DNA of 32,204 nt from Fidelibacterota bacterium (GTDB lineage: Bacteria > Fidelibacterota > Marinisomatia > Marinisomatales > UBA2128): the NCBI GenBank assembly GCA_046861645.1, contig JBHHUM010000024.1:1-32204 (forward strand), read 5' to 3'. Positions 30,445 through 31,971 of the stretch are shown in pieces (the stretch's first letter is position 1; each line of letters starts with the position of its first letter). A model generated the notes under the pieces. That model ran no database searches. It was given only the letters and a program-made list of their open reading frames with translations, and had not been told where the DNA came from. The position numbers and the translations under genes are program-made.

Positions 30445-30913
30445 TAAGATTAATCTTTTTCTCTTTACAACATGTTTAATATTCTTGATTACATGTGTAG
30501 GTGATGGTGTAGGTCTGGATGAGTTTGGAAATCCTATCGCTCCTGAAGATTCGACAGATTCTACGGGTAATGGTGATAATGGTTCAACAGGTCTGAGAGC
30601 AACGCTTAGTAGCATTCAGACGAATATATTTGATCAAATCTGTGCTGTCAAGTGTCATAAATCACCCCGGCCTAAAAAGAATCTTAATTTGGAGACGGGA
30701 AAAGCTTATGATAATCTTGTAGATATTCCGAGTAAAGAGATACCGGCAATGATGCGTGTTCTGCCAGAAGATTCAGAAAATAGCTATATCATCTGGAAAT
30801 TAGAGGGGCGTGATGGTATAAATGGGAAGCAAATGCCTCTGAATCAGACACCCTTAGAAGATAATCAGATTCAGGTTATCCGAGATTGGATCGATGCAGG
30901 AGCATTGCCATGA
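30425..30913 (+). CDS. Monoheme cytochrome c lipoprotein (planctomycete cytochrome c-like), atypical CX3CH
   Basis: Lipobox LITC; acidic Gly/Ser/Thr linker; IQTNIFDQICAVKCH; RVLPEDSENSYIIWKL; QMP..L..QI..IRDWIDAGA. Confidence 0.8.
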   Translation: MYNFLNSKINLFLFTTCLIFLITCVGDGVGLDEFGNPIAPEDSTDSTGNGDNGSTGLRATLSSIQTNIFDQICAVKCHKSPRPKKNLNLETGKAYDNLVDIPSKEIPAMMRVLPEDSENSYIIWKLEGRDGINGKQMPLNQTPLEDNQIQVIRDWIDAGALP

Positions 30914-31971
30914 AATGGAGAATAATGAAAATTATCTTCGTCTTTTTCATCCTATTACACATCCGATCAATTTATGCTGAACCGTACATTGCCATTCGTA
31001 CCGGATTTAAATGCAGTCAATGTCATGTAAATTTAACTGGAGGCGGGAAACGAACTGACTTAGGGAACATTTTCACTTTAAAATTTCTTCCCTTTCATTT
31101 CATAAAAACATCCCAACCTGTGATATTTTCTCCACAGCTTTCCCGTACTGTCTCTGTTGGTGCTAATCTGCGTATTTATAACTCAATTACCTATGGATAT
31201 ATCGATACGTCTGGAATACTGACTCCAGATGATTATTTATTAGACATAACCGAGGGTAATATTTACATGGAAGTCAGATTGATACCGGAAGTATTGACGC
31301 TATACTTTGATCAGATGGTAAGTCCTAACCCCGGTAATAGAGAAGCCTTTGGTATTTTACAAGGTCTACCATTTAATGGATACATTAAAACCGGTAAAAT
31401 TCTCCTTCCTTATGGACTGAGGCTATGGGATGATAATGTCTTTATCAGGGAAGCAACAGGTTTCAACTACTCATCACCAGAATTAGCTGGAGAAATGGGA
31501 TTTGAACCTGGAAATTTCTCGATAAGTTCTGCTATTACAAGCGATCAGTTTTCTGGTCTAGCTTATTGGATTCGAAAACATGGAAGAGTTGGATTCTCTT
31601 GGCAAAAAGCGACTGATGGGTCGAAACTTTTTATGTTAGGTTCTTTTGTGGGTTTCCATGCAGGTCGATTTACTTTTCTGAGTGAATTGGATCGTATTCA
31701 ATTTTCTAACATAAAACAGCAGGTCTATTTTGCGGAGTTGGATTTTTTATTGGTTCGTGGTAGTAATTTCAAGTTATCATACAATCTACTCGATAGAAAC
31801 CTTAATGTACCTATAGATCGAGATGGACAGGAAAGAATTACCCTGGGATGGGAAGTCTTTCCGATTCAATTTTTTCAATTTTCAATATATTATCATTTTA
31901 ATCGCTTTATTCCACAAAATATCTCTTTAAATCGAGATATGTTGGAGATAGAATTACATTTTTTCTTTTGA
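30910..31971 (+). CDS. Cyc2-like monoheme cytochrome c / outer-membrane beta-barrel fusion
   Basis: Signal peptide ending IYA|[16 protein letters not shown] (heme motif 31012-31026), then [12 protein letters not shown]. Followed by amphipathic strands ([14 protein letters not shown]) and the C-terminal beta signal LEIELHFFF. Start is ATG 30910 (overlapping the upstream stop) or 30925 (GGAG RBS). Confidence 0.8.
   Translation: [353 protein letters not shown]

Follow-up and report, generated by a model that had tools for sequence, protein, structure and literature searches.

The last gene of contig JBHHUM010000024.1 (assembly GCA_046861645.1), from a Fidelibacterota bacterium of the order Marinisomatales, lies at positions 30910..31971 and very probably encodes an outer-membrane fusion of a monohaem cytochrome and a porin. 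The whole contig, 32,204 nucleotides read on the forward strand, is called the window here. By sequence comparison the protein is a remote homologue and architectural twin of Cyc2, and by the published criteria it is not a Cyc2 member. The large haem-porin family to which it belongs is unnamed and has no Pfam or NCBIfam model. On balance we think that the porin probably works like Cyc2, as a conduit for electrons through the outer membrane. Analogy and gene linkage make Fe(II) the likeliest substrate, and we propose it only tentatively as the physiological donor.

Cyc2 is the main marker gene for inferring microbial Fe(II) oxidation from genomes and metatranscriptomes. Published filters, which ask for the FAR motif and at least 365 aa, leave out by construction this large sister family of the same build. 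The family has a conserved partner cytochrome, whereas Cyc2 is not described as needing one. It is possible, though we hold it with some reserve, that two genes, those of the haem porin and its lipoprotein cytochrome, encode a second system for electron uptake at the outer membrane, related to Cyc2 and missed by Cyc2/FeGenie screens.

Architecture of the Haem Porin

The gene and its parts, all on the forward strand, are as follows.

30910..31971, +, haem-porin gene, 353 aa plus stop: signal peptide, single-haem N-terminal segment and predicted 16-strand barrel
30910..30978, +, signal peptide, residues 1–23; hydrophobic, closing with ...IRSIYA and leading into the conserved A-E-P-Y
30976..31056, +, cytochrome segment, residues 23–49, the best-conserved region of the family
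31012..31026, +, haem-c attachment motif CSQCH (C35, C38, H39), read from the sequence
31150..31968, +, predicted beta-barrel of 16 strands, residues 81–353, ending H350-F-F-F

Signal-peptide cleavage would fall before E24, a site placed from the family alignment A1 and from 247 homologues. The single CxxCH sits 12 residues into the mature chain. The ATG of the porin at 30910 and the TGA stop of the preceding gene overlap as ATGA (30910–30913), and translation might also begin at a TTG at 30886. Tight coupling runs through the last three genes of the contig: the partner gene overlaps the dihaem cytochrome gene by 20 nt, and the porin gene overlaps the partner by 4 nt. The contig ends 233 nt beyond the porin gene, so downstream context was taken from relatives. 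A scan for promoters and terminators gave counts that were not above those of shuffled sequence.

The porin matched no Pfam or NCBIfam family at E ≤ 1. The Porin_O_P model (PF07396) likewise gave no match at E ≤ 1, and the likeness to it is one of fold only. A search of PDB sequences with the family profile returned only cytochrome c CxxCH noise, at E 1.8 or worse.

The AlphaFold2 model, built on the family alignment, has a mean pLDDT of 85 and a pTM of 0.80, with 16 strands between residues 81 and 352. The predicted barrel is OprP-like. By fold, the phosphate- and diphosphate-selective porins OprP and OprO (PDB 2o4v, 4rjw, 4rjx) are the nearest solved structures, and the general 16-strand porins OmpU, PorB and OmpF are also close. 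The original prediction, made from the letters of the window, had described a barrel ending in Phe; the model predicts a transmembrane barrel of 16 strands, and the C-terminus reads ELHFFF.

Family Size and Conservation

Of 1337 candidates from a word-indexed search, 214 were homologues at E ≤ 1e-3. All 214 are annotated as hypothetical, and their hosts are Marinimicrobia, Fibrobacteres and unclassified bacteria. The family profile A1, built from the window's own sequence and 45 of the 120 listed (46 in all), retrieved 1832 representatives at 50% identity with E ≤ 1e-3; 910 of these have E ≤ 1e-10 and 308 have E ≤ 1e-30. The hosts of these approximately 1800 clusters include Marinimicrobia, Fibrobacterota, Ignavibacteria, Nitrospiraceae, Pseudomonadota and Gemmatimonadota. 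In the same-phylum sample, a member is present in 118 of 401 genomes and 43 of 114 genera, and the orthologue type of the window in only about a dozen of the 401.

We define this "AEPY" haem-porin family by the N-terminus A-E-P-Y-x-A-x-R-x-G-x-x-CxxCH-x-N-x-x-G-G-G-x-R, a barrel of approximately 340 mature residues and a C-terminal H-x-F-F. The window porin has these features and scores 495 bits against the A1 HMM. Members have a median length of 369 aa (93 of 236 are under 365 aa), and 229 of 236 contain exactly one CxxCH. Full-text literature searches gave no description of the family; preprint supplements and deposited trees, which lie outside that scope, might contain such sequences.

The haem motif is the most constant part of these proteins. 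A CxxCH falls within the first 120 residues in 247 of 265 collected sequences, and in all 247 that have an intact N-terminus; the other 18 are fragments of 190–326 aa that start past it. In the alignment of 235 full-length members, which are 23–60% identical, C35, C38, H39, G44, R48, G162, G197 and G228 are conserved in every sequence. Within the cytochrome segment, E24, P25, G32, C35, C38, H39, N41, G44–46 and R48 are invariant or nearly so. H350, four residues from the C-terminus, is 94% conserved, and none of the Met residues is conserved.

This pattern bears on whether the motif carries haem at all. The protein could be an ordinary porin whose CxxCH lies in a conserved N-terminal plug peptide and binds nothing; haem loading is a prediction, and the N-terminal segment is modelled at low confidence. 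We consider this highly improbable. C35, C38 and H39 do not vary over 235 sequences of such low identity, and a Ccm system is present in the genome. In addition, this segment has its homologue in the part of Cyc2 that binds haem, and excerpts of Keffer et al. (PMC8406198) report cytochrome spectra and a redox potential for Cyc2.

Relation to Cyc2

In those excerpts of Keffer et al. 2021 (PMC8406198), Cyc2 consists of a signal peptide and one CXXCH, with AXPXFAR[Q/K][T/Y] upstream (unique to Cyc2) and PXL downstream, followed by a 16-strand porin that resembles OprO and OprP. The Keffer tree and FeGenie are described there as discarding sequences that are under 365 aa or lack the motif. Excerpts of a 2026 review state that Cyc2 structures are still AlphaFold predictions and that only the proximal His has been assigned.

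We obtained a Cyc2 set by scanning the back-translated motif over one genome per species. The scan yielded 121 stretches, 80 of them with flanks, and the sources include Mariprofundus, other Zetaproteobacteria, Sideroxydans, Gallionellaceae and Acidithiobacillus. Two of these 80 loci failed the protein regular expression, eight were under 390 aa or incomplete, and the remaining 70 full-length proteins were kept as alignment A2. Its consensus is A-x-A-x-P-A-F-A-R-Q-T-G-x-x-C-x-A-C-H-x-x-x-P-x-L-T-x-F-G.

The spacing A-x-P-x-(5 residues)-G-x-x-CxxCH is identical in the window porin and in the consensus of the 70 Cyc2-motif proteins, which bears out the N-terminal signature that had been read from the open reading frame at 30910..31971. 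The residues A, P, A, T and G, and later F-G, are common to the family and the Cyc2 motif region, while in the window F is replaced by I, R by I and Q/K by R. Further features are shared with Acidithiobacillus ferrooxidans Cyc2, Mariprofundus ferrooxydans Cyc2 PV-1 and Leptospirillum Cyt572: a signal peptide, a single CxxCH approximately 12 residues into the mature chain, motif spacing that ends in FG, a predicted 16-strand barrel with OprP and OprO as neighbours, and an aromatic C-terminal residue. As a control, we ran a Mariprofundus-type Cyc2 (L005) through the same modeling pipeline. It too folded into 16 strands and has the same pair of N-terminal helices, and its PDB neighbours agree with those of the window porin (OprP at rank 2, OprO at ranks 7–8).

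Profile comparison with hhalign supports the relationship. A1 against A2 gave 96.6% (E 5e-10, 124 columns), and 94.5% (E 8e-8, 110 columns) after signal peptides were removed. The 40-residue cytochrome regions by themselves gave 97.2% (E 3e-11, 30 columns). All 20 of 20 column-shuffled controls reached at most 2.2%, and an unrelated haem-c family (alignment A3) gave 12–32%, so the likeness of the motif regions is above chance. BLASTP cross-matches between the family and Cyc2 span up to 331 residues.

We also built a Cyc2 HMM from the 70 motif-bearing proteins as a stand-in for the FeGenie Cyc2 cluster 1–3 HMMs. Some family members bridge to Cyc2, with scores of up to 39.7 bits (P0257) and with P0261 at 35 bits, and the 40 best-scoring members all had E ≤ 1.9e-4. 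The HMM matched such members at the N-terminus as well as over the last strands, and the order of the two is unchanged. The paralogue of the window porin scored 17.2 bits. The window porin itself scored 10.2 bits (E 0.093, rank 7 of 5537 ORFs), below HMMER detection.

Where Cyc2 has FAR[Q/K][T/Y], the family has [ILM]A[VI]RT; where Cyc2 has PXL, it has VN-x-TGGG-[KM]-R, and its link to FG is 3 residues longer. P.FAR[QK][TY] occurs in 0 of 236 full-length family members, the window porin included. PxL is likewise absent from the window porin and occurs in 0 of 236 members, versus 64 of the 70 Cyc2-motif proteins. The family is approximately 90 residues shorter (the median length of the Cyc2 set is 460 aa) and has a near-invariant His four residues from its C-terminus. 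It also has an almost obligatory lipoprotein-cytochrome gene directly upstream. In a FastTree phylogeny of 113 rows, the 41 family rows split with support of 100 from the 70 Cyc2-motif rows, on whose side two Cyc2-like proteins encoded in this genome also fall, although the method is quick and gave long-branch warnings, the tree is unrooted, and the Cyc2 rows were selected by motif. The Cyc2 side includes Zetaproteobacteria, Gallionellaceae and Acidithiobacillus. The original prediction of a short protein that departs from canonical Cyc2 in both motifs, and of a distinct clade of single-haem porins, thus held, as did the conservation of the CxxCH among homologues; for the clade, the quick method and long branches apply. 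Its view of iron oxidase activity as plausible but not established is likewise the level of claim that fits. It did not bring out the obligatory lipoprotein partner, the operon or the canonical Cyc2-type gene on contig C165.

These results also speak to the idea that the porin is simply an orthologue of Cyc2 in published clusters 1–3 whose motif has drifted, and that it oxidises Fe(II) like Cyc2 PV-1. The common architecture, motif spacing and fold neighbours would fit such an origin, and the remote homology is significant. We nevertheless judge it improbable. At 353 aa and without either motif, the porin fails the published criteria, it scores 10.2 bits where the true Cyc2-type gene of the same genome scores 153.5, and it falls in the separate clade. 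Its obligatory partner gene was not seen beside the Cyc2-type genes examined, which were not surveyed systematically.

Partner Lipoprotein Cytochrome

The gene whose stop overlaps the start of the porin encodes a small cytochrome.

30425..30913, +, PSCyt1-like lipoprotein cytochrome c, 162 aa, with lipobox Cys24 and conserved Met137-Pro138; stop overlaps the porin start
30641–30658, +, haem site CAVKCH (CX3CH) of this partner, residues 73–78, in alignment A3

Homologues of the partner carry PF07635, and the window copy falls below the Pfam cut-off. With PSCyt1 domains (PF07635, "Planctomycete cytochrome C") it has in common the I-Q-x-I-F-x-x-x-C...CH context and a conserved Met-Pro. It differs in having CX3CH in place of CXXCH, and in being a stand-alone lipoprotein where PSCyt1 is the N-terminal domain of a large protein.

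The pairing with the porin is widely conserved. A PSCyt-like gene precedes the porin in 11 of 11 orthologue loci, and the order dihaem cytochrome c, PSCyt-like protein, porin is kept in all 11. Among the metagenome loci (80 kept of 382 relatives found), a PSCyt-like ORF ends beside the porin start in 61 of the 69 whose upstream flank is 600 nt or longer; of the other eight, L194 and L195 have one slightly further off. When the 61 loci were scored by regular expression, the haem site fell at one alignment position, as CXXCH in 41, CX3CH in 1 and CX4CH in 10, and was missing in 9. The gene order suggests that the porin and the partner cytochrome make contact.

Gene Neighbourhood

The genes upstream of the pair form the rest of a conserved block.

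29494..30444, +, dihaem cytochrome c of the c4 type; 316 aa with two CxxCH motifs, matched by Pfam Cytochrome_CBB3 and by Cytochrom_C in two stretches apiece
28293..29435, +, lipoprotein with an EB_dh domain of DOMON-like, haem-b type, whose lipobox leads into a collagen-like linker (…FYGCEGPQGPAGEPG…), PF09459, E 2.6e-24
24529..28292, +, histidine kinase (CHASE4-HAMP-PAS-HisKA_3), LuxR-type response regulator and single-domain receiver (Pfam)
22117..24532, +, haem-less porin (450 aa), then a cytochrome c'-like/cupredoxin/CarboxypepD_reg-like fusion (350 aa); head of the conserved 9-gene block

The full block is syntenic in L156 and L158, in the order porin, c'-like/cupredoxin fusion, histidine kinase, two response regulators, EB_dh, dihaem cytochrome c, PSCyt-like protein and haem porin. 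The EB_dh lipoprotein is present in 5 of 11 orthologue loci and in 0 of 80 metagenome loci, and is therefore lineage-specific. Around the porin in the 30 metagenome loci of at least 8 kb, we found a PSCyt-like gene in 29, a dihaem cytochrome c in 12, a Cupredoxin/CarboxypepD_reg gene in 10, COX1 in 3 and EB_dh in none. A separate canonical Cyc2-type gene lies in 3 of these 30 (L189, L202 and L223).

Some loci are richer. In L186 the order is Rrf2, dihaem cytochrome c, partner, porin, 2-haem Big_2 lipoprotein, cupredoxin, COX1, COX3; in L202 it is cupredoxin, Cyc2-type, cupredoxin, dihaem cytochrome c, partner, porin, cupredoxin, 4-haem cytochrome. The close relative G014 has a canonical Cyc2-type gene (163.5 bits) in the same cluster (L153), and G353 has one directly downstream of the porin. 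Thus c4-type cytochromes, cupredoxins, haem-copper oxidase genes and even Cyc2 itself sometimes lie in one cluster with the family, a further point in common with Cyc2. By analogy, this linkage recalls the cyc2-cyc1-cup-cox-rus operon of Acidithiobacillus, as given in excerpts of PMC10654088.

Several of the neighbouring proteins have features of their own. The dihaem cytochrome has "cytochrome 579" as its top NCBIfam match, at 49.9 bits versus a cut-off of 280 bits and over one domain only. Cytochrome 579 is a periplasmic carrier in the iron-oxidation chain of Leptospirillum. The match looks like a generic class-I cytochrome resemblance and is only a hint. The EB_dh lipoprotein and the 2-haem Big_2 lipoproteins of other loci (L160:638-1930, L161:179-1441, L186:6197-7459) begin alike, with E-G-P-x-G and a Gly-rich, collagen-like linker after the lipobox Cys, which suggests a common tethered design, perhaps surface-exposed.

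The fusion protein (23480–24532, +), which follows the haem-less porin (22117–23469), combines a cytochrome c'-like segment with CISCH, a cupredoxin with CNIHPQM (C-x-x-H-x-x-M) and a CarboxypepD_reg-like domain. In 16 of the 80 metagenome loci, relatives of the C-terminal half of this protein lie near family members. We also considered the haem-less porin as a degenerate Cyc2, and this was unsupported (hhalign 2.6% against A2 and 0.7% against A1).

Proposed Mechanism

Under the conduit reading, the haem porin would be exported by Sec, Ccm would attach haem to C35 and C38 with H39 as the proximal ligand, and BAM would insert the 16-strand barrel. The haem segment of approximately 50 residues would then lie within the pore's periplasmic mouth or right at it. 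From outside, a small reduced solute, with Fe2+ the likeliest, would enter the pore and hand an electron to the haem. From there the electron would pass to the co-translated PSCyt1-like lipoprotein cytochrome (30425–30913), then to the dihaem c4-type cytochrome (29494–30444), and would end at a haem-copper oxidase whose genes lie elsewhere in the genome. In the lineage of the window, the EB_dh haem lipoprotein and the two-component system would be attached to this unit. We infer the haem attachment, the topology of the haem segment, the partner contacts, the direction of electron flow and the substrate.

The arrangement can be compared with MtrAB, MtoAB and PioAB, which likewise pair an outer-membrane barrel with c-type cytochromes that move electrons across, encoded by adjacent barrel and cytochrome genes. 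According to excerpts of PMC8406198, those systems use 26-strand barrels that sheath a separate decahaem protein. The window system differs in having a predicted 16-strand barrel with its own single haem and a small monohaem lipoprotein as its neighbour.

The same conduit might run outward, Mtr/Pcc-like, with respiratory electrons passing from periplasmic cytochromes to an acceptor that lies outside the cell or enters the pore, such as Fe(III) chelates, Mn oxides, humics or oxygen species. Sequence does not reveal which way electrons flow, the cytochrome partners are on the periplasmic side, and the EB_dh/DOMON-like haem lipoprotein and the 2-haem Big_2 lipoproteins, with their long linkers, could be surface-exposed. 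We find outward flow unlikely, if the strongest of the alternatives. The extra genes linked to the family are on the oxidase side (cupredoxins, c4-type cytochromes, COX1/COX3, Cyc2) rather than quinol dehydrogenases or multihaem wires, and solid acceptors are out of reach of one haem inside a narrow 16-strand pore, an argument made in excerpts of Keffer et al. (PMC8406198).

Another option is a solute porin that stands outside the energy-conserving chain, with its haem serving at the cell surface as a sensor or as a protective catalyst, for instance for peroxide, NO or sulfide, and with the protein signalling to the adjacent two-component system or being controlled by it. A histidine kinase and two response regulators do lie in the same block in the window, L156 and L158, an Rrf2 regulator is upstream in L186, and bacteria that are not known to oxidise iron commonly carry the family. 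This seems slightly less likely again than outward flow, because regulators are linked only in close relatives and the universal neighbour is a cytochrome (29 of the 30 longer loci). Pfam and NCBIfam gave no peroxidase- or NO-reductase-like site.

Returning to the inward conduit, several results weigh against a Cyc2-like role. Many of the bacteria in which the family occurs are not known to oxidise iron. Haem loading and Fe(II) activity are predictions. Two of the adverse results have been given above, namely the complete absence of the FAR and PXL motifs from the family and the low score of the window porin against the Cyc2 HMM. When only the barrels of A1 and Cyc2 were compared, hhalign gave 9%, which is not significant. 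The haem segment (residues 19–49) has a pLDDT below 50, and the AlphaFold2 model does not fix its position; this is as expected, since the cofactor is absent from the model. The 235-member alignment contains no conserved Met or second His near the haem motif, which leaves H350 as the only candidate distal ligand. The 9 of 61 partners that lack any CXnCH mean that the partner cannot always be a redox relay. Finally, linkage to cupredoxin, oxidase or Cyc2 genes occurs in a minority of loci only, and most soil-type loci consist of just the pair.

If the porin does carry electrons across the outer membrane, then surveys of iron cycling and extracellular electron uptake undercount organisms, among them abundant, uncultured lineages such as Marinimicrobia. 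If Fe(II) or some other dissolved donor is oxidised by the family, the capacity to take up extracellular electrons would reach much further in oceans, vents and soils than marker-gene surveys suggest. With 353 and 162 aa the two proteins are small, and Keffer et al. expressed Cyc2 PV-1 in E. coli with a ccm plasmid, which makes the electron-transfer question directly testable. Whatever the outcome, the family merits its own annotation model.

Related Genes in the Genome and Its Relatives

If the pair does form a second electron-uptake system, the vent Marinimicrobia genome of the window would run it beside a canonical Cyc2. The canonical-type homologue mentioned above (153.5 bits) is a protein of 432 aa (…IPSFSRKYKTSCSTCHYAYPKLNAFG…) encoded on contig C165 of this genome (G000), at 11560–12858 on the reverse strand. 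Around it are genes for two small cupredoxin-like proteins, for a 2-haem protein, for an Fe-S oxidoreductase and for a two-component system. Canonical Cyc2-type genes are present in 55 of the 401 genomes and 29 of the 114 genera of the phylum sample. A more divergent Cyc2-like protein of 464 aa (contig C43, 24999–26393, +) scored 57.8 bits and has CNQCH...PKL and no FAR motif; a 2-haem protein is encoded just upstream of it. The genome also has two COX1 genes, in addition to the Ccm genes. Of the sequencing runs listed as containing the sequence, none was RNA; four were DNA, all from a single sample of one study labelled hydrothermal vent metagenome, which may be where the window comes from.

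A paralogous four-gene module (L002) lies on contig C180 at 7762–10270. It encodes a PSCyt1 cytochrome with a type IX secretion system (T9SS) C-terminal sorting domain, a PSCyt-like lipoprotein with CX3CH, a haem porin and a 120-aa 2-haem protein that resembles the reaction-centre cytochrome subunit. The porin of this module is 26% identical to the window porin, and the two partner cytochromes are 37% identical.

Three genomes of the same genus (G099, G200 and G260, 83–97% complete) have only the paralogue type of haem porin (E about 1e-34 to 1e-41) and gave no Cyc2-type match. Within the genus, then, it is unusual to find the operon type of the window or a Cyc2-type gene. The GC content of the locus is 35–40%, versus a genome mean of 43%. 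Together with the distribution within the genus, this is suggestive, and only suggestive, of lateral transfer of the locus.

Elsewhere in the window, predicted T9SS C-terminal sorting domains are found on a penicillin amidase (5913–8144), an LVIVD-repeat protein (8963–10369) and a PKD/DUF7305 protein (14968–17745). Three secreted proteins apparently sorted in this way would fit an organism of the FCB group.

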